Shown here in pieces: positions 7,379 to 61,285 of a DNA stretch of 64,000 nucleotides. The translations under genes were made by a program, and so were the position numbers. The DNA is from Candidatus Wolfebacteria bacterium GW2011_GWB1_47_1 (GTDB taxonomy: Bacteria; Patescibacteriota; Minisyncoccia; UBA6257; UBA9933), in the NCBI GenBank assembly GCA_001029635.1, contig CP011209.1:811969-875968 (forward strand). Direction: 5' to 3'. Each line of letters opens with the position of its first letter. Position 1 is the first letter of the stretch. The notes beneath the pieces were generated by a model. The model did no database searches. It saw nothing but the letters and a program-made list of their open reading frames with translations, and was not told where the DNA came from.

Positions 7379-7421
7379 TGCCGATAGTCGCGGACGATTA
7401 TTGGCAATGAATTCCAGGCGA

Positions 7422-7535
7422 AGCCTACTTTCCCCACCGGCGAACCAGTTAGTATCATCGGCGCTTATCACTTTTACCTCCGAGTTCGGAATGGGATCGA
7501 GTAGATCATGATAAGCTAAATCACCAGGAAATCAT
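7422..7535 (-). rRNA. rrf: 5S ribosomal RNA
   Basis: The reverse complement contains CCGAACTCGGAGGTAAAAGTGATAAGCGCCGATGATACTAACTGG...GGAAAGTAGGCTTCGCCTGGAAT, collinear with the E. coli 5S rRNA. Confidence 0.75.
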
Positions 7536-7594
7536 TGACAACAATCGAAACGCATATACTATCACCAACCATTTTATTTTTTGGGTTACTTTGC

Positions 7595-10688
<3,094 letters not shown>

Positions 10689-32591: not shown

Positions 32592-32720
32592 AGCACCTGT
32601 ATACAACGTTTGTCCGCCGACTGGCGGACAAACGTTGTATGTTTTTTATCAGGCAATCCCAATTATCTCTGCACCTATTCGGCAATAAAAATTCGGCAGA
32701 TGCCTGCCGAATTTTTATTG
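32592..32720. promoter_or_regulatory. Two long perfect hairpins between pcrA and ksgA
   Basis: atacaacgtttgtccgcc-gact-ggcggacaaacgttgtat followed by a T-run, and ttcggcaataaaaattcggcag-atg-cctgccgaatttttattgccgaa with a 22 bp stem. Confidence 0.5.
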
Positions 32721-32763: not shown

Positions 32764-34557
32764 TTAATCCATATCAATATATCGCTCTTCATCATCAAAT
32801 CCCCTCCCTCCTTCAAATTCCATCAATCCCGATGGGATTTCGCTCAAAAATCGTGATGGCAAATGATAGAAGGTCAGATACAGTTCCTTACGCGCACGAG
32901 TCATCGCCACGTACATCAAGCGCCGTTCTTCTTCTATCTCATTTTCATTATGATACGACATCTGGTGCGGCAGCAATCCATCATTCACACCGATCACGAA
33001 TACCGCATCGAATTCCAAACCTTTTGCCATATGGATGGTCATCAAGTTCACGACACTGTCCTGCACCTTCTTGAGATCCTTCTTCTTTACCGTATCAGTT
33101 GATTCGAGCAGCGAGATACGCTCCAAGAAGTCTTCCATCTTCTCGAATCCGCTCGCAAACTCGATAAGCTCCTTGATGTTTTCAATGCGTTCGGTCGAAT
33201 TAGTCTGCGTGCGCTCGATATAATTGAAGTAATCGGTCGTCATCAAGATGTATCCGATCAACTCCACCGGTCGCAGTACCGCCGCTTTACTCGGCAGCTC
33301 CTCCTTGAGTTGTGTATACGGCTTCTTGAGGAAGCTCTTTTTGAGACGATCGAGACTTACGCTGTCCTGCGGATTGGACCCATATCGCAATGCGGCCACG
33401 ATATCCTTGATCTCCTTGCGTTCGTAGAACTTCAACCCTCCAAATATCCGATATGATAGTCCCCGCTCGATCAGCGCCTGCTCAATAGCACGTGACTGCG
33501 CGTTTGTGCGATAGAGAATCGCAATCGAGCCATAATCCGAGAACATGCGAATCGTATCAATGTGCCCGGCTATCCATTCCGCTTCTCCGTCAGCCGTATA
33601 TTGTTCAACTACCTTCACGCGCCCTCCTTCGGGGTTGTTCGTCCACAGCGTCTTCGACTTCTGTAAATGATTATGCGCGATGACCGCCGATGCCGCTTTA
33701 ATGATGTTTTGCGTCGAACGATAATTCTCTTCGAGTAATACCACTTTCGCATCCGGCCAATCCTTTTCGAAGTTCAAGAAGTTTCGGAAGTCCGACCCAC
33801 GAAATTTGAAGATTGATTGTTGGTCGTCTCCCACTACACTCAGATTACGATATTTATTTGCCAACAATTTAATAAGCGTATATTGAGCTGTGTTGGTGTC
33901 CTGGTATTCGTCTACCAAGATGTAGCGGAATTTTTCCTGATACTGGTCCAATATCTCCGGGTTGCCCAAAAACAACATTCCCGGTTTTTGGATTAGGTCG
34001 TCAAAGTCGAATGCATTGTTCGCCTGCAGTGCCTGCTCGTAGAGTTTAAATAGCTTATAGACGGTTTCATCTTCCGCCGCTTCCGGGTCGATCATCTCGT
34101 CCTTGATCTTTGAGAACTCGCGCCGTAAGACCAATGGCGTTAACCGCTTTACATCGCGCTCAGAAAGTCCCGCCCCGGCAGCCACCTTTTTGATCAATGA
34201 CTTACTGTCGTCCGCATCGAAGATGGTGTAGTTCGAGTTTCTCCCGAATAGCCGCGCCTCCTTCTTCAATATCCGCGCTCCAAATGAGTGGAACGTGCCC
34301 AAGAACATCGCCTTAAACGATTCCTTGTCCTGCGCAAGCAGCTTTTCCGTGCGCTCCTTCATTTCTCCCGCCGCCTTGTTCGTAAAGGTGATGGCGACGA
34401 TATTCTCCGGCTTCACGCCGCTGTGCAACAAAGCAGCCAACCGGCTCGTCAGTGTCTTAGTCTTCCCCGATCCTGCACCCGCAACGATCAAGAGCGGGCC
34501 TTCGCCATGTTCCACCGCCGCGCGTTGTTTATCATTCAATTCTTCAAAATGTATCAT
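32764..34557 (-). CDS. pcrA: UvrD/PcrA-family ATP-dependent DNA helicase. Short form, 597 aa.
   Basis: Walker A AGAGSGKTKTLTSR and the UvrD helicase motif series. It lacks the extended C-terminal domain. Confidence 0.8.
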   Translation of the reverse strand: MIHFEELNDKQRAAVEHGEGPLLIVAGAGSGKTKTLTSRLAALLHSGVKPENIVAITFTNKAAGEMKERTEKLLAQDKESFKAMFLGTFHSFGARILKKEARLFGRNSNYTIFDADDSKSLIKKVAAGAGLSERDVKRLTPLVLRREFSKIKDEMIDPEAAEDETVYKLFKLYEQALQANNAFDFDDLIQKPGMLFLGNPEILDQYQEKFRYILVDEYQDTNTAQYTLIKLLANKYRNLSVVGDDQQSIFKFRGSDFRNFLNFEKDWPDAKVVLLEENYRSTQNIIKAASAVIAHNHLQKSKTLWTNNPEGGRVKVVEQYTADGEAEWIAGHIDTIRMFSDYGSIAILYRTNAQSRAIEQALIERGLSYRIFGGLKFYERKEIKDIVAALRYGSNPQDSVSLDRLKKSFLKKPYTQLKEELPSKAAVLRPVELIGYILMTTDYFNYIERTQTNSTERIENIKELIEFASGFEKMEDFLERISLLESTDTVKKKDLKKVQDSVVNLMTIHMAKGLEFDAVFVIGVNDGLLPHQMSYHNENEIEEERRLMYVAMTRARKELYLTFYHLPSRFLSEIPSGLMEFEGGRGFDDEERYIDMD

Positions 34558-34664
34558 AAGTATGGTATCGCTTTCTCTTTTGTGTTCTCTATCTTACCTA
34601 ACTATTACTCCGTTGTCATCCTTCATGATTACTATTCAACCTCAACTGCGCTAACGCTATTATG

Positions 34665-34975
34665 CCCGCAGATGCGAGCTCATCTTTTTCGTACTTTTTT
34701 AGTAAAAGTACGGCCGTCGGCTCCGTGCAGGAAAAAATACTACGCCGACATGCCGGCACGTTGCATGCGATCCGTCAGCTCGCGGATCGCTAGCAACGCC
34801 AAGGCTCAAAGCGCGAGCAAAGTAAAAATAGAGAGTGGACTCTAAAATTTCTTACAAAACTAAAAATTACCCGTTTTCCCAACGGGACCCAGATTTTTAG
34901 TTTTTGATGAAATTTTCTTCGCCCATCTAATCTCTATTTTTACAGCTCGCAGATAAAATGCGCTTCAGCACTTTC
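34665..34975. repeat. MITE-like repeat, family A, copy 4. Most complete, taken as the canonical copy.
   Basis: gcagatgcgagctcatc...gtacttttttagtaaaagtac...cgctagcaacgccaagg...gcgcgagcaaagtaaaaatag...cccgttttcccaacgggacccagatttttag...ttttcttcgccca...tttttacagctcgcagata. The ends are imperfect inverted repeats (cagatgcgagct / agctcgcagat). Confidence 0.65.
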
Positions 34976-35119
34976 AATATAAAAATAAAAGCCATATCCA
35001 ACATGCGTGGTACAGCTTTATTGCTTGCGGATATCCCTCCGCTGAGTCCTACCTAATTTACCTTTCTACTGCTTTACATCATCAATGACTAAGAGGTGGC
35101 GTTTTATGGTACAGCCTTA

Positions 35120-35584
35120 CTACTTAACAAATAGTACGTTGGACGAGAGCCATACCGCATTCTCGCTCCAATACTCCTCAAATGCTTCTTGAGACTCGGT
35201 CCACTCGTCCATCGCCTGCATGTACTCTTCTTCGAGTTCTCCCATGAGCGCAAGTAGGGCCTTGTCTCTGGCGTGAAACCTGATCGCATTCCCCGCCTCT
35301 TCCACAACGATCCCGTTTGGGAGTAATACGAACAGGCTTGAATTAAAGAGTACTCCTGGGAGAGCGTTTTCGACCTCCGCTGCTACTTCGTCGAAGTAGC
35401 CGTCTTCATTTACTTCCAGAATCTCGTACGCCTTTTTATTGAGGTACGAGCGCTCCGCCTGGGTGATATTCCCAAACAAGAGTTTCTTCCCAATCCCACA
35501 TAATCTCCTGATCTTTTCCTGGATTGCGGCTGGTGCGTCTTCAAACTTCCTATCACTCCTAAAATATTCCTCAAACGTTTTCAT
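35120..35584 (-). CDS. Hypothetical protein
   Basis: 154 aa acidic ORF. No family recognised. Confidence 0.45.
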   Translation of the reverse strand: MKTFEEYFRSDRKFEDAPAAIQEKIRRLCGIGKKLLFGNITQAERSYLNKKAYEILEVNEDGYFDEVAAEVENALPGVLFNSSLFVLLPNGIVVEEAGNAIRFHARDKALLALMGELEEEYMQAMDEWTESQEAFEEYWSENAVWLSSNVLFVK

Positions 35585-35790
35585 ACTGCCTCCTCTTTCC
35601 TTTAAGATTTAACAGCGCATTTCTCTGCTGCTCCCAATGAGCAGCAGAGAAAATGACTGCCAAATCCCGCATGTGGTTTTCAATGTTCTTGTTATATTTA
35701 TATCATAATTATTATAAATTGTCAATGTCTTCGCTTGAAGGGGGTGCCCTGGACCTCATCCTTCGCCGAAATGAAATGACAGATAAAAAA

Positions 35791-35815
35791 ATGTACGTCA
35801 TCGGATGACGTACAT
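35791..35815. promoter_or_regulatory. Perfect 25 bp palindrome ATGTACGTCAT-CGG-ATGACGTACAT, copy 3
   Basis: Identical to the 5779-5803 copy. Intergenic, between a hypothetical gene and comM. Confidence 0.6.
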
Positions 35816-35985
35816 TTTAAACTATAGATCCCTCGGTTCCGTTCCACTCCGCTTCACTCGAGATGACACACTCCGTCATTCCGAGCTCGGCCCTCGGCGT
35901 TACTAGCGAGTGCAGCGAGTATGCAACGTGCCAAAATACTCGAGGCACATAAGGTCCCGCGCTTCGCATGTCGAGGAATCTGCTT

Positions 35986-37518
35986 TTATATTTCCCTTAT
36001 CCTATATTGAAATGCTTCGCTCAGGTGGTTATTAGTAACCTTGTCGGACCCTTCGAGGTCCGCTATCGTGCGCGCCGTCTTGAGCATGCGGTAATAGCCA
36101 CGAGCGGAGATGAACGATTTTTCGAGCATCCTTTTTACAAATTGTTTTCCTGCATCATCCAATTGCACTACCTTATCCGCCAATTTCGATGGCATCTCGG
36201 CATTTGTATAGATCCTTGGTATTATATCCGTAAAACGACGAGCCTGTATCAGGCGGGCGTTTAGTACCTGTTCGCGGACCGCGTCACTTTCATCTGATTC
36301 CTTTTCCTTGGATAATTCCTCTATCTTTACCCTTGGCACTTTTATCTGTATATCTATGCGATCGAGCAATGGCCCGGAAAGCTTACGCTGATAGCGTGCG
36401 ATTTCGTGTGCGCCACACTGACACGTCTTTTCTTCGTCACCGTAGTATCCGCATGGGCATGGGTTCATTGCCGCGACTAATGTAAATCGAGCCGGAAACT
36501 TCAATACGCTCTTTGCACGCGCGACGCATACATCCCCATTTTCGAGTGGCTGTCGTAATGATTCGAGCAGATCCCGCCGGAACTCCGGTAACTCATCCAA
36601 AAACAATACACCCCGGTGCGCAAGCGATATCTCTCCCGGGCGCGGATTTGCACCGCCCCCAATGACCGATGCCGGCGATGCGCTGTGATGTGGCGCTCGA
36701 AACGGGCGCGTCATTGCAAGCACATCGCTATTAGCGATCCCCGCCGCACTATATATCTGCATCACCTCCATAGCCTCGTCCACCACTAGCGGAGGCAAAA
36801 TAGAAACCAATGCTTGTGCCAGCATTGTCTTTCCCGCTCCCGGTGAACCACTCATCAGTAGATTGTGCCCACCCGCCGCTGCGATCATCAGCGCACGTTT
36901 TGCATTCATTTGTCCTTTTATCTCGGAAATGTCAGTGCTATATCTTGCCGTATCCCACTCCAGCTTCGTCAGTGGATACGGTTCGATCAGCACACGCCCT
37001 TCCAGATGATCGATTAATGTCACCATATCAGTAATTGGGATCACATCAACTCCACTCACAATCGCAGCTTCTTGCGCATTTTCTACGGGAATAAATACCT
37101 TGGCTATATGCAACTCCTTTGCGAGACGAGCAATCGCGAGCGCACCTTTTATCGAACGTGCCTTCCCATCAAGCGATAACTCGCCAATAAAGAGCTTATC
37201 AGCCGTTTCGAATTCCTTAATCTGCTTGGTTGCCAACAAATATCCCATCGCTATTGCGAGATCATATTGCGACCCCGCCTTTTTGATATCCGCCGGGGCA
37301 AGATTTACCGTAATTCTTCTATTTTCTCGATTGGGCGGTTTTATATTCGAGTTCTTCAATGCGGCGTTGACCCGCTCCTTTGCCTCGTTTAGTGCCTTGT
37401 CGGCAAGACCCACAATTGTAAACGAATGAAGACCGACGTTTATGTCGGTCTCCACTTCGATTAATTTTGCTTCAATCCCCTCAAGTTCTGCCGAGTATAC
37501 CTTTGAGAAGTGTTCCAT
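35986..37518 (-). CDS. comM: Mg-chelatase-like AAA+ ATPase, YifB/ComM family
   Basis: Walker A LMSGSPGAGKTMLAQA and conserved ComM/YifB blocks (NRENRRITVNLAPADIKKAGSQYDLAIAMG...). Confidence 0.8.
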   Translation of the reverse strand: MEHFSKVYSAELEGIEAKLIEVETDINVGLHSFTIVGLADKALNEAKERVNAALKNSNIKPPNRENRRITVNLAPADIKKAGSQYDLAIAMGYLLATKQIKEFETADKLFIGELSLDGKARSIKGALAIARLAKELHIAKVFIPVENAQEAAIVSGVDVIPITDMVTLIDHLEGRVLIEPYPLTKLEWDTARYSTDISEIKGQMNAKRALMIAAAGGHNLLMSGSPGAGKTMLAQALVSILPPLVVDEAMEVMQIYSAAGIANSDVLAMTRPFRAPHHSASPASVIGGGANPRPGEISLAHRGVLFLDELPEFRRDLLESLRQPLENGDVCVARAKSVLKFPARFTLVAAMNPCPCGYYGDEEKTCQCGAHEIARYQRKLSGPLLDRIDIQIKVPRVKIEELSKEKESDESDAVREQVLNARLIQARRFTDIIPRIYTNAEMPSKLADKVVQLDDAGKQFVKRMLEKSFISARGYYRMLKTARTIADLEGSDKVTNNHLSEAFQYRIREI

Positions 37519-37540
37519 GAAATTTATGCAAAGTACAAAT

Positions 37541-37572
37541 TAGAAAAACTGGATTCCGGCCTCCGCCGGAAT
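37541..37572. repeat. REP-like element, family R
   Basis: ctggattccggcctccgccggaatgacacagaaaac. Confidence 0.6.
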
Positions 37573-37586
37573 GACACAGAAAACTC

Positions 37587-37937
37587 TTAAGCGTTTTCTT
37601 CCTCACGAGCTAATTTTTTGCACGAGCGACACAACTTCGATGTACTGTTTACCTGCAACATGTCCATGCCAATATCCTCTCCGCATTCCTCGCATTTACC
37701 AAAAGTCCCTTTCTCCATACGCGCCAGTGCGGAATCGATATCGGCTAGTCGTTCACGTAAAACCTGGGATGCCGCTGTTTGATTTTGCCATTCGGTCGAT
37801 TCATCCGCCTCTTCTTCGAGCGAATCAATATCATCCCCAAAATCTTCCCCCTGCTCCAGGGTATCAATCTTTACTTCAAGCATCGCTTTTTCATCCTCAA
37901 GCTCATTTTTTATTGATTCCAATTTTTCTTTGTTCAT
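37587..37937 (-). CDS. DksA/TraR-family C4 zinc-finger protein
   Basis: 116 aa with an N-terminal coiled coil and a C-terminal CxxC...CxxC (GKCEECGEDI...KLCRSCKKL). Confidence 0.6.
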   Translation of the reverse strand: MNKEKLESIKNELEDEKAMLEVKIDTLEQGEDFGDDIDSLEEEADESTEWQNQTAASQVLRERLADIDSALARMEKGTFGKCEECGEDIGMDMLQVNSTSKLCRSCKKLAREEENA

Positions 37938-37940
37938 ATA

Positions 37941-38402
37941 TTAGCCAATTAATTTAAATATGTACGGGAACACTACGAAATATCCCAATAATCCAAGACC
38001 AACAATACCTATAACAATACCTATTGTTATCAATACCATGTTCATCGTTCCGGACGATGTTTGCCCTTGCGGAGCTTTTTGAATTGGTACCGTAGGCATT
38101 TGCGGAGCCATAGGCGTTTCAAACAGCGGTTTCTCCGGTCCCGTGTATGCCGGGGCTTGCGGAGCGGCATCACGCTGCGATGCAAACGCTTCCTGCGCTC
38201 CCTGGGTCGGAACTTCTCCTCCACCTTCTCTGAAAGCCTTGAGGTCTGATTCCATAGTTCGGATATCGATCTCCAGCGCGGGCGGCTCGGGAACTTTCTT
38301 TTCCGGAGCTGCCGGATCTTGTGTCGGATTTGTCTGATTATCCATATGAATAGTATAAAGGAAAAAGGAAAAAGGAAAAAGGGGGATGCATTGACATGAC
38401 AA
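37941..38402 (-). CDS. Hypothetical Pro-rich protein with a C-terminal TM anchor
   Basis: 153 aa, low complexity, with one C-terminal hydrophobic helix. Confidence 0.4.
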   Translation of the reverse strand: MSCQCIPLFPFSFFLYTIHMDNQTNPTQDPAAPEKKVPEPPALEIDIRTMESDLKAFREGGGEVPTQGAQEAFASQRDAAPQAPAYTGPEKPLFETPMAPQMPTVPIQKAPQGQTSSGTMNMVLITIGIVIGIVGLGLLGYFVVFPYIFKLIG

Positions 38403-38466
38403 ATAAAAAGTGGTTACGTTATTCCAGTACTACAAAATCGAATATCTTAACTAAAGGAGAGAACAT

Positions 38467-39169
38467 TATGCCGTGTATCATTTGGTTAGTCCTGTGCATC
38501 TTCGGAGCCGCCATCTGCGCAATCGTGTATCCCTACAAAGACGGGACCGGAGCGAAAGCAGAATTCTGGGCGACAAAAAAGCCGCGGGTAAAAACCTGCG
38601 CCAAATACATGATCTTTGCATCTTTCGGTACCATCTTCCTCTCGCCCGTCTACTATGAATTCCCGGGGTCAGATTCAACCGTCGTTACGTTTGAGGGCGC
38701 CAAGGCGATCAAGCATCCTTTTGGGGCGTTCTGCTGGGAATGGTCAGAATATTCAAACCTCCCTACCGGAGCGATCAACGTTTCAAGTGGCGTAACATTC
38801 CTCACGGAAAATCCAAAGGTTCGCCACTTAAAGTACAGAGTCGGCTCACAAATTTCCGATCCGGAACTTTTCTACCGCAACAAAGGACGACGGATCCACT
38901 CTTCCGAGATGGACAGTAACTCCGGCGGCGCGGATACGAGGACCTTTATTCACTCTTCCGGATACTCGGTCAAAAACGAAACTCAGGCAATTGTCGCTTC
39001 GCAGCTGTTCGAATTCAACAATCGGTTTTCGAAGCAGCTGGCGCAGCTCTACAATCCGCTTGAAGCGAATCAGCAACGCGAGTTCCGATCGTTGATCGAG
39101 CCGTGGCTAAATGCTCAGCTCGCAAAGGATGGCATTGCAGTTGTGGTCGGAAACTTCTCGATCGAGTGA
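38467..39169 (+). CDS. Hypothetical membrane-anchored protein
   Basis: ATG preceded by AGGAG (ctaaaggagagaacattATG), then an N-terminal TM helix. The six-frame ORF 38396-39169 has an upstream alternative start. Confidence 0.5.
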
Positions 39170-39187
39170 CTTTCCCTGTGCTCCCTA

Positions 39188-39218
39188 TCAATCGCCGACC
39201 ATCATGGTCGGCTTTTTT
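39188..39218 (+). terminator. Rho-independent terminator
   Basis: cgccgaccatcatggtcggc followed by ttttttg. Confidence 0.6.
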
Positions 39219-39382
39219 GTTGGTTGGATTGGGGAGTAAATACGGGGATGTTTATATTCTTTCCCTCTGTTCGTAGTCTGCCGTGCCCACAGCCGAATCG
39301 CGCCGCCTACTAGCGGCTGCGATTCTATGAGGCACACAAACGCAAAACCGACATTCATTCGAATGTCGGTTTTGCGTTTGTG

Positions 39383-39454
39383 TGCCCCCAAGGAGAATCG
39401 GACTCCTCTTTACAGGATGAAAACCTGTTGTCCTGACCACTAGACGATGGGGGC
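39383..39454 (-). tRNA. tRNA-Glu (anticodon UUC)
   Basis: GCCCCCATCGTCTAGTGGTCAGGACAACAGGTTTTCATCCTGTAAAGAGGAGTCCGATTCTCCTTGGGGGCA. It has a 7 bp acceptor stem, a TTTTCAT anticodon loop and a GTCCGATTC T-loop. Confidence 0.8.
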
Positions 39455-39463
39455 GCATGTAAT

Positions 39464-39718
39464 TTACTTTATATCAAATCCTAGCTTAGTTAGCAATTCT
39501 TTTCTCGTTTGATAGCTTCTTTTTAATTGCAATTCCCGTTTTCTTGCCTCTGATTTTATGACGTAGTTTTCTGTATACTTCAAAATAAACAGGATTCTAT
39601 GTTTTATTGACTTAGTCTTTCCCGAATTATGCTCCTTTAACCTTTTATCAACATTATCGGTTATGCCAATATAATACCCAAAATCAATCGTGCTTTGCAA
39701 AATGTATAGAAAATACAT
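39464..39718 (-). CDS. GIY-YIG nuclease-domain protein (YhbQ/UPF0213-like)
   Basis: 84 aa: MYFLYILQS...GYYIGITDNVDKRLKEHNSG, which is the GIY...YIG...R...E...N catalytic motif series. No strong SD. Confidence 0.7.
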   Translation of the reverse strand: MYFLYILQSTIDFGYYIGITDNVDKRLKEHNSGKTKSIKHRILFILKYTENYVIKSEARKRELQLKRSYQTRKELLTKLGFDIK

Positions 39719-39766
39719 AAATGATTTTAAAGGATGCCCGCCGAAGGCGGGTCCGCTCTCTGGCGG

Positions 39767-39803
39767 AAAAACCTGTTGTCCTAACCATTAGACGATGGGA
39801 GCT
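39767..39803 (-). pseudogene. 5' half-copy of tRNA-Glu, ending in the anticodon loop
   Basis: GCTCCCATCGTCTAATGGTTAGGACAACAGGTTTT matches positions 1-35 of the adjacent tRNA-Glu, with 3 mismatches in the first 35 nt. It then diverges into the hairpin ccgccagagagcggacccgccttcggcgggc. Confidence 0.6.
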
Positions 39804-40114
39804 TACGTATTTATAAGCGTTTTAAATCATACACGACCCACCCAAAAAAATCAACCAAAAATAAGGGGTATTTGCGCACCCCTTATTAATTGCCACACCG
39901 ACAACCCAACTTATTTTCAACACAAGTCAGGACATTTGCCTATCGACTCAGATTCCGCAAGTATTCTTTCTGCAATAGCCCCGAAATAGATTCTTTGCTT
40001 CTTAGGATGGTGCCCTTAGCTTATCCGATTCGGCCCTTCCGAAACCATTCCTAATATCTTTTCCAGCCTCCCTACCTTTCTTTTTTCTTTCCTTTCCCCC
40101 TATAATTACCCTAT

Positions 40115-41617
40115 ATGAGCCAACAGAGATTTTTTGAGATCCTTCCGGGAGTTCTTTCCTGGTCTACATTACTTGCCATCGTTATATTGTCTTGGATCTA
40201 TCCGGTCTTTATGGCGGTATTCATCATTTTCTTCGATATTTATTGGTTCCTTAAAACCCTCTACCTATCCATCCACCTCCGCATTAGTTACCACCGAATG
40301 AATACCAATATGAAGGTTGATTGGCTCGCAAAACTGAAGGCAGACCCGACAACCAATACCTGGGACCAATTCTATCATGTTCTGATCTTTCCCTTCTATA
40401 AAGAGCCGTACGAGGTCATCAGGGAAACCTTTGATGCCCTTATTAAGGGTAACTACCCGATGGATAAATTTATCGTCGTTCTTGCTGCCGAAGGACGCGC
40501 CGGTGACCAGGCACAGACCGTAGCAAAACAACTCGAACAGGAGTTTGCGAACCATTTCTTTAAATTCCTAATTACCACACACCCGCAAGACCTGCCCGGC
40601 GAAATTCCCGGGAAGGGCTCAAATGAAACGTGGTCCATCAAGCAGACTAAGGAATTAATCATTGATCCGCTCGCCATTGATTATAACAAAATCCTGGTAT
40701 CTATTTTTGATTGCGACACGCAGATCTTCCCGAACTACTTCGGCATATTGACGCACACCTTCCTGACAACCGAGGACAATCTGCACGCCAGCTACCTACC
40801 TGTGCCGTTCTTCCTGAACAACATCTTCCAGGCTCCGGCACTGGCACGCGTCATTTCCTTCTCCGCATCGGTCTACCATATGATGCAGCAGGCGCGCCCG
40901 CATCGACTCACCACCTTCTCCTCGCACACCATCCCCTTCAAGGTACTTGTCGACGTTGGTTATTATAAAACGAATATCGTGAACGAGGATTCTCATATTT
41001 TTTGGCAATCCTATATTCACTACAACGGCAACTATCGCACCATCCCGCTAAACTACCCCGTCTCCATGGATGCGAACGTAGCTCCGACATTCTGGCGTAC
41101 TATGGTTAATCAGTACAAGCAACAGCAACGCTGGGCATGGGGTGGTGTCGAGAATATTCCGTTCTTTATGCGGGGGTTTATTAAGAACAAAAAGATCCCC
41201 TTCAAGCGTCGCTTCTCCTGGGCGTTCTTCTACATTGAAGGTTTTCACTCCTGGGCGACTAATGCCCTAATTATCTTCACTCTTTCTTGGCTCCCTATCG
41301 CTATTGGCGGGCCGGAATTCCGATTCTCGCTTCTTTCCTACTCCCTGCCAAAGGTGACTAATATGATTATGAACTTTGCGGCCATTGGTATCCTTACCTC
41401 TGCATTCCTTGGTATCGTATTACTCCCGCCAAAGCCGATCTGGTTCAAAAAGTACCACTACATCTGGTATGTTCTCCAATGGATGTTCCTTCCTATCACC
41501 ATGATTATATTCGGATCCATTCCCGCATTGGATTCGCAGACTCGTGGAATCTTGGGTGGCAAATATCGTCTTGGGTTTTGGGTCACACCAAAGCATCGAG
41601 AATCAAAAAATCCCTAA
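40115..41617 (+). CDS. Family 2 glycosyltransferase, membrane-embedded processive type (cellulose-synthase-like)
   Basis: 500 aa. DCD motif (SIFDCDTQ) and QxxRW motif (QQQRWAWG). TM helices flank the catalytic domain. Confidence 0.7.
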   Translation: MSQQRFFEILPGVLSWSTLLAIVILSWIYPVFMAVFIIFFDIYWFLKTLYLSIHLRISYHRMNTNMKVDWLAKLKADPTTNTWDQFYHVLIFPFYKEPYEVIRETFDALIKGNYPMDKFIVVLAAEGRAGDQAQTVAKQLEQEFANHFFKFLITTHPQDLPGEIPGKGSNETWSIKQTKELIIDPLAIDYNKILVSIFDCDTQIFPNYFGILTHTFLTTEDNLHASYLPVPFFLNNIFQAPALARVISFSASVYHMMQQARPHRLTTFSSHTIPFKVLVDVGYYKTNIVNEDSHIFWQSYIHYNGNYRTIPLNYPVSMDANVAPTFWRTMVNQYKQQQRWAWGGVENIPFFMRGFIKNKKIPFKRRFSWAFFYIEGFHSWATNALIIFTLSWLPIAIGGPEFRFSLLSYSLPKVTNMIMNFAAIGILTSAFLGIVLLPPKPIWFKKYHYIWYVLQWMFLPITMIIFGSIPALDSQTRGILGGKYRLGFWVTPKHRESKNP

Positions 41618-41632
41618 CGGGATTTTTTGATT
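41603..41632. terminator. Bidirectional terminator between convergent genes
   Basis: aaaaatccctaacgggattttttg. Confidence 0.6.
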
Positions 41633-41656
41633 CTCGATGCAATTTCAAATTTTAAA

Positions 41657-43834
41657 TTACTCAAGATGCACCTTGTCGTGAAATTTTCTCACGATGTCTT
41701 TTAGCTGAGGATGACTTGTTAGATCAGGATCCATCCCCAGAATACCCTCAGCAGCCTCACGGGCGCTCTTGACGAGCTTCAGATCGTGCAGAGAGCGCAT
41801 CGCCAAATCAGGCAACCCCGTCTGCGATTGCCCCATGAATTCGCCGGGGCCACGCAGCTGCAAGTCTTTCTCCGCAAGCTCGAATCCATTCTTCGCACCT
41901 ACCAATGCTTCAAGCCTATCCTTGGTTGTTTGCGCCGATGAATCAGTGAACAGCAGACAAAATGACTGATGCTCCCCGCGCCCAACGCGCCCTTTAAATT
42001 GATATAATTGCGACAATCCAAATCGATCCGACCCTTCGATCATCATGATGCTTGCATTAGGAATATCAACACCGACCTCTATCACCGAAGTTGCCACAAG
42101 CACATCAATATCGCCCTTCTTCATCGATTGCATGATCGCATCTTTTTCTGCCGGCTTTAGCTTGCCGTGCAACATCGCAACCCGCATATCGGGAAAGATC
42201 TTCTTGGAGAGCTTCTCGTATTCCTCCTTAACCGTCTTCGTATCGACCGCGAACCAATTCTTTTTATCTTCATCCTCTTCAGCCTTTTCAATGCGTGGAC
42301 AAATAACGAAGACCTGCCTCCCTTTTTTCACCTGACCCCGAATGAATGCGTATGCGTCCGTCCTACTCGCCGGAGGGACGATCTTTGTAATGATTTCCTT
42401 TCGCCCCTTTGGCAGCTCTCCTATGACCGAAATATCAAGATCACCGAACAAGGTCAGCGACAGCGTACGCGGTATCGGCGTCGCCGACATTGACAAAAAA
42501 TGCGGCAAATACTCCCCGTCGCCTTTCTTGTGCCCCGCAAGCGCCTGACGTTGACGCACACCGAAACGATGCTGTTCATCGATGACCACCAATGCTAGAT
42601 TCGCAAACTCCACTCCTTTCTGTATCAGCGCATGCGTTCCGATCGCTATCTTTATTTCCCCCTTCGCCAATTTTTTTATGACCTCGGGCTTCTTCGCCTC
42701 ACTTTCCAATCCTTCTCCATAGAATACCTTTGCGCCCGAAGCCGTCAGTAACGCCACTCCTTTTTCATAATTGCCGAATATCTTCTTAAACGTTTGATAA
42801 TGCTGATTCGCAAGAATCTCCGTTGGCGCCATAAACGAGGCTTGTAGGCCATTTTCTGCAGCAATAATTGCCGCCATGATCGCCACGATCGTCTTTCCTG
42901 AGCCGACATCCCCTTGAAGTAACCGGTTCATCGGATGCGGTTTTGCCAGGTCAAGCACAATCTCATCTACCGTTTTTCTTTGTCCATCCGTCAGTTCGAA
43001 TGGCAGGCGTTCCAATAATTCCTTGAACCATTTCTGATCGATCCCGCACGCATGTGCGTTTTCTTTTGCCAAGCGGGAGCGCTCGAGTATGTTTACTAAC
43101 TGCAAATAAAAAATATCCTCAAATGCGAACCGGCGGCGTGCATACAACACATCATCCATTGTGTCCGGGAAGTGTATCTTGCGGAGCGCATCGTTTATCT
43201 CCGCGACGCCTGCGCGCACAAGCATGCCTTCCGGGAGTGTCTCCGGCAATCGCTCCATCTCATCCAGTAACGGCTTTATTAGAAAGCGCAATCCCTTCGA
43301 TGTTACGCCACGTGTTTCCGGATATACTGGCACCAGGCGCCCCGTATGCTTAAATGATTCAATCTCCTCGCGATATTCAGCCGCATCCTCCATGAACTGT
43401 TCCTCGTCTTCTGAAAATCCCACAATCTCGTAGGACGGATGCGAAAAACTCAACCCATTCTTCCCGTCGCTTATTTTCCCCGCAAGATTAATCACCATAC
43501 CTTTTTTCAGCATCGCGACTAGAAACTTTTGGTTAAACCAAGTCGCCCGGATACTTCCCGTATTATCCACCACGGTCGCCTGTATAATAAACATCTTTTT
43601 CCTAAACGACCTCAGTATTTTAATATCATGAATTACCCCCTGAATAGTCGCCGGCTCCCCCGGGATCAGATCAGCAATATTAGTAATCTTCGAAAAATCC
43701 TCGTATCGGGACGGGAAGTGCCATAATAGATCCTTGACCGTCTTAAGACCAAGTTTCTCGAGGCGAGTCGCAAAAGCCAGGCCGATGCCTTTCACGTACC
43801 GCAATTCCGTTTCGAGTCGTACTCCTTGGGACAT
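41657..43834 (-). CDS. recG: ATP-dependent DNA helicase RecG
   Basis: 725 aa with a wedge-domain N-terminus, Walker A GDVGSGKTIVA, DEQHRFGV and helicase C motifs. Confidence 0.9.
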   Translation of the reverse strand: MSQGVRLETELRYVKGIGLAFATRLEKLGLKTVKDLLWHFPSRYEDFSKITNIADLIPGEPATIQGVIHDIKILRSFRKKMFIIQATVVDNTGSIRATWFNQKFLVAMLKKGMVINLAGKISDGKNGLSFSHPSYEIVGFSEDEEQFMEDAAEYREEIESFKHTGRLVPVYPETRGVTSKGLRFLIKPLLDEMERLPETLPEGMLVRAGVAEINDALRKIHFPDTMDDVLYARRRFAFEDIFYLQLVNILERSRLAKENAHACGIDQKWFKELLERLPFELTDGQRKTVDEIVLDLAKPHPMNRLLQGDVGSGKTIVAIMAAIIAAENGLQASFMAPTEILANQHYQTFKKIFGNYEKGVALLTASGAKVFYGEGLESEAKKPEVIKKLAKGEIKIAIGTHALIQKGVEFANLALVVIDEQHRFGVRQRQALAGHKKGDGEYLPHFLSMSATPIPRTLSLTLFGDLDISVIGELPKGRKEIITKIVPPASRTDAYAFIRGQVKKGRQVFVICPRIEKAEEDEDKKNWFAVDTKTVKEEYEKLSKKIFPDMRVAMLHGKLKPAEKDAIMQSMKKGDIDVLVATSVIEVGVDIPNASIMMIEGSDRFGLSQLYQFKGRVGRGEHQSFCLLFTDSSAQTTKDRLEALVGAKNGFELAEKDLQLRGPGEFMGQSQTGLPDLAMRSLHDLKLVKSAREAAEGILGMDPDLTSHPQLKDIVRKFHDKVHLE

Positions 43835-46925: not shown

Positions 46926-47918
46926 TTAAGTAATTTTATATGCGCCGACCGCTTTTTGCAGGTTATGCGTATTGCCGTGTTTCAGTAATCCTAAATATGA
47001 GCCCATTATTTCTTCGCTATTATTTTCAACTAACCGCTTCATCATACGCTGCTTTGTTGTAGTGCGTAATATCCTATGATCGATAAAATTAATCCAACCT
47101 AAAAAATCAACGCCCGTCGCAACCGTCTTTATATATAGTTTATCCGGATGCAATTCCAACCTAAGCTTTTCATATAAGAAATTTTTAACAGCAGGGATAT
47201 ATCCCTCTAATATACTTCTATCGTCAGCGAAAAACACAAAGTCATCGCTGTATCTAATATAGTATTTATTTTTTAATTCATGCTTCACATATTGATCGAA
47301 CTCATTCATATATATGTTGACCAATAATTGCGATGTAAGATTGCCCAACGGTAGCCCTACCCCACTCCGAGCGACTGAAAAACTTCCAACCACCTCGCCA
47401 AGCAGAATGAGCAATTCCCTATCGTCAATATATTCCCTTAATATCGCCAGTAAAATACTATGGTCAATATTGGCAAAGAATTTTCTGATGTCGCACTTTA
47501 ATACCCAGCAGGTCCGCGTATTGTTCTTGCTCACGCGATATGAAAAATCCCTAAATCGATCTATCACCTTATAGGTACCCTTCCCGATCCGGCACGAATA
47601 CGAATCGGCAATAAATTTTTTGTCAAAAAACGGGCACAAAACCCGATGAATCGCATGATGCAGCAGCCGATCGCGAACGCTCGCTTTGTGGATATCTCTC
47701 GGCTTCGGATCATCTACCTTAAATGCTTCATACCCGCCATGCCGATACGCATGATTGGCAAGGTCATCATGCAATGCTATGATATTATCCATCAGGCGCA
47801 ACGAAAACTCCTGCACATCCAATTTATTTCGCTTGCCCCTCACAAATTCCTCCCATGCGCACAGTAGATTCTCGACAGAAATTATTTCTTCATAACTATG
47901 GCACAATCTGATTTTCAT
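46926..47918 (-). CDS. Reverse transcriptase of a diversity-generating retroelement
   Basis: 330 aa. RT motifs GLPLGNLTSQLLVNIYMNEFD (motif 4/B') and YIRYSDDFVFF (YxDD). GAGGAA RBS. TR, Avd and VR lie adjacent. Confidence 0.85.
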   Translation of the reverse strand: MKIRLCHSYEEIISVENLLCAWEEFVRGKRNKLDVQEFSLRLMDNIIALHDDLANHAYRHGGYEAFKVDDPKPRDIHKASVRDRLLHHAIHRVLCPFFDKKFIADSYSCRIGKGTYKVIDRFRDFSYRVSKNNTRTCWVLKCDIRKFFANIDHSILLAILREYIDDRELLILLGEVVGSFSVARSGVGLPLGNLTSQLLVNIYMNEFDQYVKHELKNKYYIRYSDDFVFFADDRSILEGYIPAVKNFLYEKLRLELHPDKLYIKTVATGVDFLGWINFIDHRILRTTTKQRMMKRLVENNSEEIMGSYLGLLKHGNTHNLQKAVGAYKIT

Positions 47919-47929
47919 AATTCCTCGTA

Positions 47930-47943
47930 CCCCCCCCCCCCCC
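47930..47943. repeat. Homopolymeric C14 tract (G14 on the minus strand) in the divergent intergenic region between RT and avd
   Basis: cccccccccccccc lies immediately upstream of the RT RBS. Confidence 0.7.
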
Positions 47944-48007
47944 GATCAATAATGTAACCATTATTGATCATACGGTACGACTATACAAGCTTTGGCAAGA
48001 GTACCTG

Positions 48008-48313
48008 TTGCAATTTCCAAAGACATCGCGATATTCCCTCGGGATAAAAATCGACAATCTTCTGCTTGAAATTGCCACATTGTTTTTTACCGCAAGCTAC
48101 GCCCCCAAAGACCCGAAGTTGATCTGCCTCATCCAAGCAAGCAAAAGGCTCGACACGCTTAAATTTCTCATAAAAGTTGCATGGGAGATAAAGTCGCTTG
48201 ACAACAATCGCTACGCCGAGCTCTCAAAAAAACTGGATGCCATCGGTAAAATGCTCGGAGGATGGCAAAAACAAGTGGAAAAACAAAACCCCGCACCAAC
48301 GGCGGGGAAATGA
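48008..48313 (+). CDS. avd: Avd-like accessory variability determinant (four-helix-bundle DGR protein). TTG start as listed.
   Basis: The C-terminal LDAIGKMLGGWQKQVEKQ resembles Bordetella phage bAvd IAEVGRILGSWIARVNRK. The central region also aligns loosely. No in-frame ATG upstream. Confidence 0.55.
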   Translation: MQFPKTSRYSLGIKIDNLLLEIATLFFTASYAPKDPKLICLIQASKRLDTLKFLIKVAWEIKSLDNNRYAELSKKLDAIGKMLGGWQKQVEKQNPAPTAGK

Positions 48314-48446: not shown

Positions 48447-48737
48447 ATGCATGCGATATCATCCAATCCACCACCCCTCGTCCGCCCCTGGCGGACTCGG
48501 AGTTGTATCGTATTTGTGAGCAAGACTCATCCAATACCACATACCAAGTATCTTCATTTTTTGAAGTTCCTACCCGCAATACTACGTATAGCGTTGCAGA
48601 CGGGTCTGCATATATCACTCTATCCCAAGCCGTAACCAAAGATATTCTCGACATATGGATACTGGATTCGGCAGCGGGAAGCCGTAACCGCCCGCATATT
48701 CACCTACTACCACATACAGCATAACATAAAAAATTAA

Positions 48738-60886: not shown

Positions 60887-60960
60887 TGGACCCAACAGGA
60901 TTCGAACCTGTGACCTCTCGAATGTGAATCGAACGCTCTAACCAACTGAGCTATGAGTCC
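60887..60960 (-). tRNA. tRNA-Val (CAC)
   Basis: GGACTCATAGCTCAGTTGGTTAGAGCGTTCGATTCACATTCGAGAGGTCACAGGTTCGAATCCTGTTGGGTCCA. Confidence 0.75.
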
Positions 60961-61285
60961 TTTTGCTATGTATTTTTAAAACCGCCTCAACCTACGCTAC
61001 CCGCAGGGTTCTAACTACCGCCTCGCTTTTGAACATATGCTCGGCGGCATCCCGGCACGTTGCACGTTCGTTTCACTCACTAGGCAGCGCGCGCGGAAAA
61101 ATAATGCGCGCCCTGCATTTCGTCGCGTTGCACACTCTCCGCCTATGGCGGATCCTTAGCAACGACACAAAGTCACAACGCCGAGGGTCAACTGAGCTAA
61201 GCGACCTCTTTATTCGTGTTTCCAGTATATACGATTTTCTTATATTTTCAACAAAAAAGAGGGCGGATTCCCGCCCCCCGCTGTG

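Follow-up and report, generated by a model that had tools for sequence, protein, structure and literature searches.

A tRNA-Glu Gene Split by a Double Hairpin and a Small GIY-YIG Nuclease Gene: A Probable Mobile Cassette of tRNA Genes in Wolfebacteria and Other Bacteria

We analyzed 64,000 nucleotides (nt) of Candidatus Wolfebacteria bacterium GW2011_GWB1_47_1 (contig CP011209.1, positions 811,969 to 875,968; this whole stretch is the window, and all positions refer to it), in which a transfer RNA (tRNA) gene, tRNA-Glu(UUC), is interrupted in the anticodon loop by a double hairpin and an open reading frame (ORF) encoding an 84-amino-acid (aa) GIY-YIG nuclease, followed by an intact copy of the same tRNA. 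Comparison with syntenic relatives shows that a cassette of 348 nt was inserted between tRNA nt 35 and 36 and that the tRNA gene was rebuilt in the process. While the insertion is established in this way, cleavage by the nuclease and the role of the hairpins are what we infer. We consider it probable, though far from certain, that the locus holds a homing-type mobile cassette that invades tRNA genes with a minimal nuclease of the Slx1/UPF0213 clade.

Insertion of the Cassette into a tRNA-Glu Gene

In their order on the minus strand, the features of the locus are:

39860..39887, minus strand: intrinsic-terminator-like hairpin (11-bp stem, then a T run) at the end of the upstream transcription unit, just before the tRNA promoter
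39826..39854, minus strand: sigma-70-like promoter, TTGATT-17 nt-TATGAT, from a promoter scan and homology to the promoter at the syntenic loci L089 and L091
39768..39802, minus strand: displaced ("outer") 5′ tRNA-Glu fragment, nt 1–35, with three transitions relative to the intact copy
39737..39767, minus strand: double-hairpin module, exactly between tRNA nt 35 and 36 (35.1 bits with covariance model R1, see below)
39767-39752, minus strand: first hairpin of the module (hp1), TCCGCCAGAGAGCGGA
39751-39737, minus strand: second hairpin of the module (hp2), CCCGCCTTCGGCGGG
39725..39736, minus strand: short arm CATCCTTTAAAA, a remnant of tRNA nt 36–47, 10/12 identical to the intact tRNA
39464..39718 (stop codon included), minus strand: gene for the 84-aa single-domain GIY-YIG nuclease, Slx1/UPF0213 clade, from Pfam PF01541 and PDB matches
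39383..39454, minus strand: intact ("inner") tRNA-Glu(UUC), from ARAGORN and Rfam
39335..39382, minus strand: 48-nt near-perfect hairpin directly 3′ of the inner tRNA, seen in the sequence, with spurious sub-threshold Rfam matches to microRNA families

The inner tRNA scores 59.2 bits and is called by both ARAGORN and Rfam at 39382/3-39454 (-), where the initial annotation, made from the letters alone, had placed it (39383-39454). That annotation had also described a second copy of tRNA nt 1–35, which is real (blastn-short E ~1e-8 against the inner tRNA within the window), with its limits moved by one base to 39802-39768 so that A39803 is excluded; the three mismatches in 35 nt that it counted are C3>T, G15>A, and C20>T, the break lies in the anticodon loop as it said, at nt 35|36, and the 84-aa ORF in the interval was rightly assigned to the GIY-YIG family (PF01541, E=4.5e-12). 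It erred in having the copy diverge for good into an unrelated GC hairpin: after a 31-nt insert, which is a conserved and covarying module of the element, tRNA sequence resumes for 12 nt as CATCCTtTAAAa at 39736-39725, matching nt 36–47 at 10 of 12 positions. The nuclease ORF starts 6 bases past this short arm, and its stop codon lies 9 nt before nt 1 of the inner tRNA, which itself lies 313 nt downstream of the outer fragment. No second 3′ half with a matching acceptor strand is present in the 64-kb window. Immediately upstream of the inner tRNA the promoter scan gave no match; the native tRNA-Glu promoter, which now precedes the outer fragment, the nuclease ORF, and the inner tRNA, most likely drives all three. 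The hairpin at 39335-39382 may form the 3′ end of the transcript; it is unlike the terminator at the empty site. Position 55 in the T-loop of the inner tRNA is C instead of the near-universal U (TCCGATT), as it is in L016 and L037, and given that the empty-site relatives share C55, we regard it as a trait of the lineage and not as damage.

Metagenome contigs scanned for the 3′ half of the intact tRNA yielded four loci that have the same tRNA and lack the nuclease gene. Two of these, L089 and L091, share the gene order of the window to either side of the tRNA (window 34001-38359 and 40075-42940) at ~74% nt identity. In both, a homologous promoter (window 39768-39832 versus L089 5410-5474, 87.7% identity) leads straight into a tRNA-Glu that is uninterrupted and has the same sequence as the inner tRNA of the window. 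Neither empty locus has the ORF or a tRNA fragment, and model R1 finds no hairpin match in them. The window carries 348 extra bases relative to L089 and L091 and, given that these syntenic relatives hold the same promoter and an uninterrupted, identical tRNA-Glu, the extra bases are an insertion. Given the 35-nt repeat, one way to write the insertion is (hairpins + nt 36–47 remnant + ORF + spacer + nt 1–35) between nt 35|36, that is, the double hairpin, the 12-nt remnant, the 84-aa gene, a 9-nt spacer, and a fresh tRNA nt 1–35, which together with the resident nt 36–72 gives an intact tRNA. The initial annotation had offered insertion or homing with a partial target duplication as one of two readings and had suggested that relatives be compared for an empty site; the uninterrupted L089 and L091, together with the same architecture in dozens of unrelated genomes, bear this reading out.

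The cassette is present in 24/24 contigs that carry an identical copy of a neighboring 500-aa gene, identical contigs coming from Rifle groundwater metagenomes (PRJNA268031), and since all of them carry it we conclude that it is fixed in the population; no pair of filled and empty sites within the species occurs among these 24 contigs. Filled and empty states are found at the same site in related genomes, and the tRNA-Glu nt 35|36 junction occurs in ~50 copies across phyla.

A further empty site with an identical tRNA-Glu (L088/L090, on the 893-kb contig Ga0208375_1000002) has the tRNA segment inverted with respect to the same two flanking genes, an inversion that points to the tRNA-Glu locus as a hot spot of rearrangement. 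Just downstream of tRNA-Glu, a ~1-kb segment of the window (38360-39376) has no equivalent in the syntenic L089, where 140 nt stand in its place, and constitutes a second indel at the locus; the 257-aa ORF that it contains (38396-39169, plus strand) has no Pfam or PADLOC match.

Recurrence of the Design across Phyla and tRNA Types

Homologs were collected in one genome per species using protein patterns only, derived from an alignment of 12 sequences, a scan that is blind to tRNAs. It returned 74 loci from Patescibacteria, Bacteroidota (including cultured Marivirga), Thermodesulfobacteriota, Elusimicrobia, and others. A tRNA lies at most 200 nt from the nuclease ORF in 59 of the 74 loci, on the same strand in every case (59/59), and the stop codon is often 0–15 nt from tRNA nt 1. 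This tRNA is tRNA-Glu in 41 of the 59 loci, and more distant proteins adjoin tRNAs for Gln, Met, Pro, Val, Lys, Ser, Asp, Leu, Ala, Tyr, and Phe; most loci in which no tRNA was called are cut by the end of the contig or still contain tRNA fragments. Partial tRNA copies are found in nearly every locus, are mostly 100% identical to the adjoining intact tRNA, and have breakpoints that cluster after nt 35 (49 fragment ends), after 55/56 (~22), and after 22 (11); in most loci the broken copies are capped by the hairpin module described below. Homologs with 70% identity to the window protein occupy other gene neighborhoods (H+-PPase/L32, or TsaD); here, too, tRNA-Glu(UUC) follows the nuclease gene directly, and a tRNA-Glu fragment with the same insert after nt 35 precedes it. 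The equivalent of the short arm measures 8–21 nt in homologous loci, and the proteins of the Candidate Phyla Radiation (CPR) and of Bacteroidota, which are 52–58% identical, are accompanied by the same hairpin module. These locus comparisons show that one design recurs across phyla and tRNA types.

The components occur in two polarities. Loci of the window type consist of fragment(1–35), hairpins, short arm, ORF, and tRNA, and loci of the Marivirga type consist of tRNA, terminator, ORF, short arm, hairpins, and fragment(57–73). In Marivirga the units form a tandem array of 3–5 units with a 383–384-nt period; arrays are also present in L018, L030, L014, and L059, and in L018 and L059 hairpin-bearing repeat units that lack the nuclease gene are amplified (three times in each). 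In seven loci (L010, L017, L018, L032, L047, L053, and L057), scars flank the ORF–tRNA pair on both sides. Displaced fragments in L005 (2810-2987 and 3287-3376) have hairpin inserts at two places in the D-arm and in the anticodon loop, and the T-loops of L017 (~1880-2004) and L031 (~1880-2009) contain GC-rich inserts of 110–130 nt (GGGATTCGAACGGG...GAAAATCC).

A Covarying Hairpin Module at the tRNA Break

Some 50 copies of the module sit exactly between T35 and C36 of tRNA-Glu fragments. Their consensus is TC-xy-CC, loop, GG-y′x′-GA, followed by (C/T)C-xy-CC, loop, GG-y′x′-G(G/A). When 40 sequences are aligned, 99% pairing is seen in the two hairpin helices and both sides change in 11 of 17 pairs, giving the stems CCGCC/GGCGG, CAGCC/GGCTG, CACCC/GGGTG, CAACC/GGTTG, CACTC/GAGTG, and CGCCC/GGGCG. 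In 500 shuffles the observed stem covariation was never reached, nor does any shifted register approach it. Between these loci the adjacent gene has reached saturation at synonymous sites while the stems are kept, and the module is thus under selection. The compensatory changes in both arms suggest intrastrand pairing, in RNA or in single-stranded DNA, in place of a palindrome bound by a dimer; an operator for a dimeric protein was ruled out as the main explanation of the hairpins because two independent half-sites do not predict compensatory changes. Three wobble pairs (G.U/U.G), all on the sense strand, give a slight hint as to which strand folds, and the predicted fold of the leader RNA is not significantly more stable than that of shuffled sequence (z = -1.83).

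The covariance model R1 was built only from anticodon-loop copies. On the copy in the window it scores 35.1 bits (E=1.8e-7), the sole strong match in 64 kb, and it also matches the T-loop inserts of Marivirga and others at ~49 bits, which indicates that the same module is used at nt 56/57. Anticodon-loop sites and most T-loop sites have the module in direct orientation; it is inverted at D-arm sites (nt 22/23) in L039 (1453-1484), L066 (1445-1474), and L079 (1403-1431), as well as in one T-loop scar (L057, 2005-2034). Other subfamilies, which are associated with Pro, Val, and Met tRNAs, have a different, perfect palindrome, CCTGCCTGCCGGCAGGCAGG. Rfam searches at E<=10 over the locus and at E<=1 over 19 related loci gave only tRNA and, on the hairpins, spurious microRNA and small RNA matches. 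No family corresponding to a "COG2827 RNA motif" matched, and the literature on COG2827 gave nothing relevant. We regard the hairpin module as a conserved, selected part of the element that always marks the break; it may serve as a handle for a structure-specific, Slx1-like nuclease, or it may be a spacer that keeps the scar from being cut again.

The sequence TCCGCC-N3-5-GGCGGA also occurs outside the cassette, in three copies in the window (32613-32628, 48481-48495, and 61138-61152) against 0.00 expected from shuffles, with the copy at 32613 at the apex of a long, terminator-like hairpin. The TCCGCC..GGCGGA hairpin sequence seems to be reused in several contexts in this genome.

A Minimal Nuclease of the Slx1/UPF0213 Clade

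The Pfam match covers residues 1–73, and the 84-aa protein is entirely catalytic domain, with no separate DNA-binding domain of the kind found in the I-TevI/Seg type. Residues Y5, Y16, G18, R26, H30, and E62 are invariant in 19 homologs. As a single sequence the protein aligns over residues 2–79 with the UPF0213 proteins BH0048 and EF2693 (PDB 1zg2, 1ywl); in a profile search against the PDB, 1ywl and 1zg2 match at E ~2e-15, SLX1 at 7e-5, and I-TevI at 6e-3, so that the nearest proteins after UPF0213 are the SLX1 structure-specific endonucleases and I-TevI is much further away. The ratio of nonsynonymous to synonymous substitution rates (dN/dS) is 0.05–0.2 against homologs, with synonymous sites saturated, and on the basis of this ratio we conclude that the gene is under selection. 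The family is large: of 1.84 billion cluster representatives (50%-identity clusters), 14,877 match at E<=1e-3 and 2,728 at E<=1e-10, and most of these proteins are 80–120 aa long.

A 2006 survey of the superfamily (Dunin-Horkawicz et al.; PMC1564403) reported bacterial Slx1-like domains fused to, or in an operon with, methyltransferases, one of them a TrmH-like tRNA enzyme, and suggested a link of these proteins with RNA metabolism; linkage to tRNA genes, partial tRNA copies, and hairpins are not mentioned there for the Slx1-like/UPF0213 family. No function or mobility was found assigned to the UPF0213 family in the literature examined. A phage origin was ruled out because no PHROG family matches the nuclease and no relative was found among IMG/VR viral contigs. 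A defense system was likewise considered and set aside, PADLOC giving only weak partial matches to the GIY-YIG part of a candidate family. COG4123, which we mention as a lead only, was later characterized as a tRNA m6A37 methyltransferase.

Foreign tRNAs and Signs of Break Repair

Loci in which the outer and inner tRNAs differ indicate how the cassette may arrive. In L032 and L053, the outer 5′ and outer 3′ fragments pair as one coherent tRNA (GGCCCGT with ACGGGyy), and the complete inner tRNA differs from it (GCCGCCA with TGGCGGT); from nt 8 to ~63, that is, on both sides of the break, outer and inner sequences are the same, including rare variants such as CATTCT in L053. L026 shows the pattern on the 5′ side, and in all three loci the outer and inner copies differ at 4–5 of acceptor nt 1–7 and are identical at nt 8–35. 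The pattern in L032 and L053 indicates that a cassette carrying a complete tRNA of its own split a resident tRNA, and it suggests that the flanks of the break were converted. Such comparison of acceptor stems shows that some cassettes carry a foreign tRNA. Together with the hairpin module that CPR and Bacteroidota share, these loci support movement of the cassette between lineages. At the informative loci, 21 of 25 outer/inner differences fall in nt 1–7, whereas natural variation among these tRNAs is split about evenly between nt 1–7 and nt 8–35; this bias is suggestive of co-conversion around the break, as expected of double-strand-break repair, although it reflects few independent events. 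If the rebuilt tRNA were cut again and again and repaired from a neighboring scar, tandem arrays of both observed kinds, with the ORF and lacking it, would be expected.

Proposed Mechanism and Competing Explanations

We posit that, by analogy to free-standing homing endonucleases, the nuclease breaks an uninterrupted tRNA gene at or near a loop and that the break is then repaired by copying from a cassette-bearing copy, the tRNA halves serving as homology arms. The cassette would bring a working tRNA or part of one, with the result that the host keeps the gene, and the original 5′ half would be left behind the native promoter as a dead fragment capped by hairpins; given that the native promoter presumably transcribes fragment, ORF, and tRNA together, the host could not silence the ORF without losing the tRNA. 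In other genomes, renewed cutting of the rebuilt tRNA would lead to tandem arrays. Two origins are conceivable for the simple form seen in the window: pairing of the right-hand end with the inner tRNA of the donor would yield it directly, and deletion between the 37-nt repeats of a two-scar form would yield it as well.

Several points weigh against this mechanism. Cleavage and its target are deduced for the window protein and its close homologs alike, and it is difficult to see how a protein of 84 aa that has no DNA-binding domain would recognize a tRNA gene by its sequence. Having the same sequence as the tRNA of the empty sites, the inner tRNA is unprotected, and a nuclease that recognizes the tRNA gene should keep cutting it. 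In the window it is the outer fragment, and not the inner tRNA, that differs from the relatives; to agree with the model, this requires a closely related donor, or else co-conversion or decay of the fragment. The presence of the cassette in all 24 contigs and the strong conservation of the gene would also fit a function that benefits the host, the lack of viral-contig copies and of a PHROG match leaves the cassette with no known vector, and the mechanism gives the hairpins no necessary role although they are clearly selected. A further version, which we hold only tentatively and think rather unlikely, is that the nuclease and the double hairpin form a mobility system guided by structure, in which the nuclease recognizes the hairpin module, the cloverleaf arms that a tRNA gene can extrude when transcribed, or both, instead of sequence. 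Were it true, a single family of minimal enzymes could enter many tRNA genes, in both orientations and at loop positions nt 22/23, 35/36, and 56/57, and whole tRNA genes would be swapped between phyla.

Three explanations compete with a homing-type cassette. In the foremost of them, the hairpin module would itself be the mobile unit, a miniature palindromic element that enters tRNA-gene loops, with the Slx1-like protein acting in trans as a structure-specific nuclease; the pair would then resemble repetitive extragenic palindromic (REP) elements and their REP-associated tyrosine transposases (RAYTs), and the gene, the tRNA duplications, and the arrays would be by-products of breaks at hairpins. 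Consistent with this, R1 finds the module at three tRNA positions (35/36, 56/57, and 22/23) despite its origin in anticodon-loop copies, the module is inverted at the D-arm sites of L039, L066, and L079, hairpin units without the nuclease gene are amplified in L018 and L059, the nearest characterized relatives of the protein are SLX1 structure-specific nucleases, and the compensatory stem changes favor intrastrand pairing over a dimer-binding palindrome. Yet the full module occurs once in the 64-kb window, where only three single TCCGCC..GGCGGA hairpins are found elsewhere, and is not dispersed in the manner of REP elements or miniature inverted-repeat transposable elements (MITEs); all of the instances seen lie in tRNA fragments beside a GIY-YIG gene or its arrays and none in an otherwise intact gene or intergenic site, and a GIY-YIG hydrolase alone cannot join strands, so that host repair would still be required. 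We judge a mobile hairpin to be improbable.

A retained operon useful to the host, in which the tRNA-like leader and the hairpins control or stabilize a transcript for tRNA-Glu and for an RNA-acting nuclease of tRNA processing or surveillance, would account for the strict same-strand linkage (59/59) and the 0–15-nt spacing from stop codon to tRNA, for the strong purifying selection and the fixation of the cassette in the population, for the sense-strand position of the three wobble pairs, and for the fusions and operons of Slx1-like proteins with methyltransferases, including a TrmH-like one, from which a link to RNA metabolism was suggested (PMC1564403). It agrees poorly with close relatives that manage with a plain tRNA-Glu and no cassette, with the patchy distribution across phyla, with a leader fold of ordinary predicted stability (z = -1.83), and with a hairpin that, depending on the type, lies before or after the ORF, from which variable position we conclude that the hairpin tracks the tRNA break and not the gene. 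Because of the empty sites, the foreign inner tRNAs, and the tandem arrays, a domesticated function at the RNA level is less likely, and we would give such an operon little credence.

The other reading of the initial annotation, an intron-like or split arrangement, fares worst and is in our view extremely unlikely. Here the anticodon loop would hold an intron, of group I or another kind, or else a 5′ half and a 3′ half would be joined in trans. This reading draws on the position of the break and on the three substitutions in the fragment, which would still permit its pairing with the downstream 3′ half (C3>T gives G.U, and the other two lie in the D loop). The search for a group I intron that the annotation had suggested returned no match, nor did any other Rfam intron model at E<=10 in 39100-40100; only 12 nt of a 3′ exon follow the 31-nt insert, which is too small for an intron, there is no separate partner 3′ half in the window, and an intact tRNA lies 313 nt downstream. 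Homologous loci carry fragments of arbitrary extent, and the hairpins are self-complementary and are not paired across the junction as a bulge–helix–bulge would be. The window encodes bacterial 23S and 5S ribosomal RNA (7413-10666) and, since the genome is bacterial, a splicing endonuclease of the archaeal type is not expected.

Other Features of the Window

Upstream of tRNA-Val(CAC) (60887-60960), a terminator and a promoter are followed by an 18-nt 5′ tRNA fragment, GGTCGCTTAGCTCAGTTG, at 61189-61206 (-), in which 11 nt match the D-arm of the nearby tRNA-Val exactly. After it come ~225 nt of GC-rich non-coding sequence, including the hairpin TCCGCCATAGGCGGA (61138-61152, -), and then the intact tRNA-Val, with no GIY-YIG ORF; judged by this layout, the site looks like an ORF-less relative or a relic of an insertion of the same kind. 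Downstream of the inner tRNA-Glu, a hairpin GCCGCTAGTAGGCGGC is followed by GATTCGGCTGTGGGCA (39317-39284, -), which resembles tRNA-Glu nt 57–73 at 12/17 positions. We do not claim this as a decayed, displaced 3′ fragment of an older T-loop insertion, since by our estimate chance would give roughly a dozen matches of this quality in the window. At 46926-48313, among tRNA genes, a reverse transcriptase gene (RVT_1, E=1.8e-21) adjoins a gene for a bAvd-like four-helix-bundle protein (E=1.7e-14), a pair typical of diversity-generating retroelements, and the hairpin TCCGCCCCTGGCGGA (48481-48495) is located near it.

Comparison with Known Systems

Group I introns, some of them associated with a homing endonuclease gene, also interrupt bacterial tRNA genes in the anticodon loop. 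Unlike them, the cassette has no ribozyme core, no downstream exon, and no splicing, and a second, intact tRNA keeps the function. Integrase-driven islands enter tRNA genes, rebuild the tRNA from a part that they carry, and leave a partial repeat; the cassette shares with these islands the tRNA gene target, the gene kept intact, and the partial repeat, but it is 348 nt long with a single 84-aa ORF and no tyrosine or serine integrase, duplicates the 5′ half, and has a loop break capped by hairpins. The Slx1-like/UPF0213 proteins (PDB 1zg2, 1ywl) resemble the window protein over their full length, with the same size and the same Tyr/Tyr/Arg/His/Glu set.

SegB of T4/T6-like phages is a GIY-YIG endonuclease that is statistically associated with phage tRNA genes and cuts inside tRNA genes (PMC2330249; PMC13096335), and its role in recombination-dependent tandem amplification has been shown experimentally (PMC13096335). 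The cassette is similar in that a GIY-YIG gene lies among tRNA genes, in its association with them across many genomes, and, as far as our comparisons suggest, in spread and amplification by break repair. The two differ in that SegB is a two-domain enzyme of the I-TevI type encoded between intact genes of phage genomes, whereas the cassette has an 84-aa single-domain protein of the Slx1/UPF0213 type, resides in cellular chromosomes, splits the tRNA gene, and has partial copies and junction hairpins. If our reading is correct, the link between tRNA genes and GIY-YIG nucleases would extend from phages to cellular chromosomes, and a large, unstudied family of ~85-aa GIY-YIG proteins would include widespread parasites of tRNA genes in CPR, Bacteroidota, and other phyla. 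It would explain stray "tRNA pseudogene" fragments and GC-rich hairpins beside tRNA genes and would provide a route by which a complete foreign tRNA gene replaces a resident one. A minimal nuclease and a defined 30-nt DNA or RNA structure would form a testable pair for the choice of a target without a DNA-binding domain, and the cassette would be a bacterial counterpart to the old idea that ties interrupted tRNA genes to mobile elements.

As the initial annotation had surmised, we found no description of a layout in which a GIY-YIG gene and hairpins split a tRNA gene; our search covered full-text literature, with most subscription journals outside its scope, and such absence is not proof. Close analogs nevertheless exist, SegB being one and the mobile ORFs (mORFs) of fungal mitochondria the other. 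The latter, found with a duplicated gene end in Allomyces atp6 and in Glomus atp6, atp9, cox2, and nad3 (PMC3630166), resemble the cassette in that an endonuclease gene (of the GIY-YIG type in atp9) enters an essential gene and brings a replacement, possibly foreign, for the part that it displaces, while the displaced native part stays as an unexpressed duplicate, which in mORFs lies downstream. Their targets, however, are protein-coding genes of organelles in which the 3′ end is replaced, whereas the cassette targets a bacterial tRNA gene, supplies a 5′ part, a 3′ part, or a whole tRNA, and places a double hairpin at the junction. As far as we found, this hairpin module has no counterpart in the SegB or mORF systems, and we suggest that the cassette works in the manner of SegB and the mORFs while belonging to neither group.

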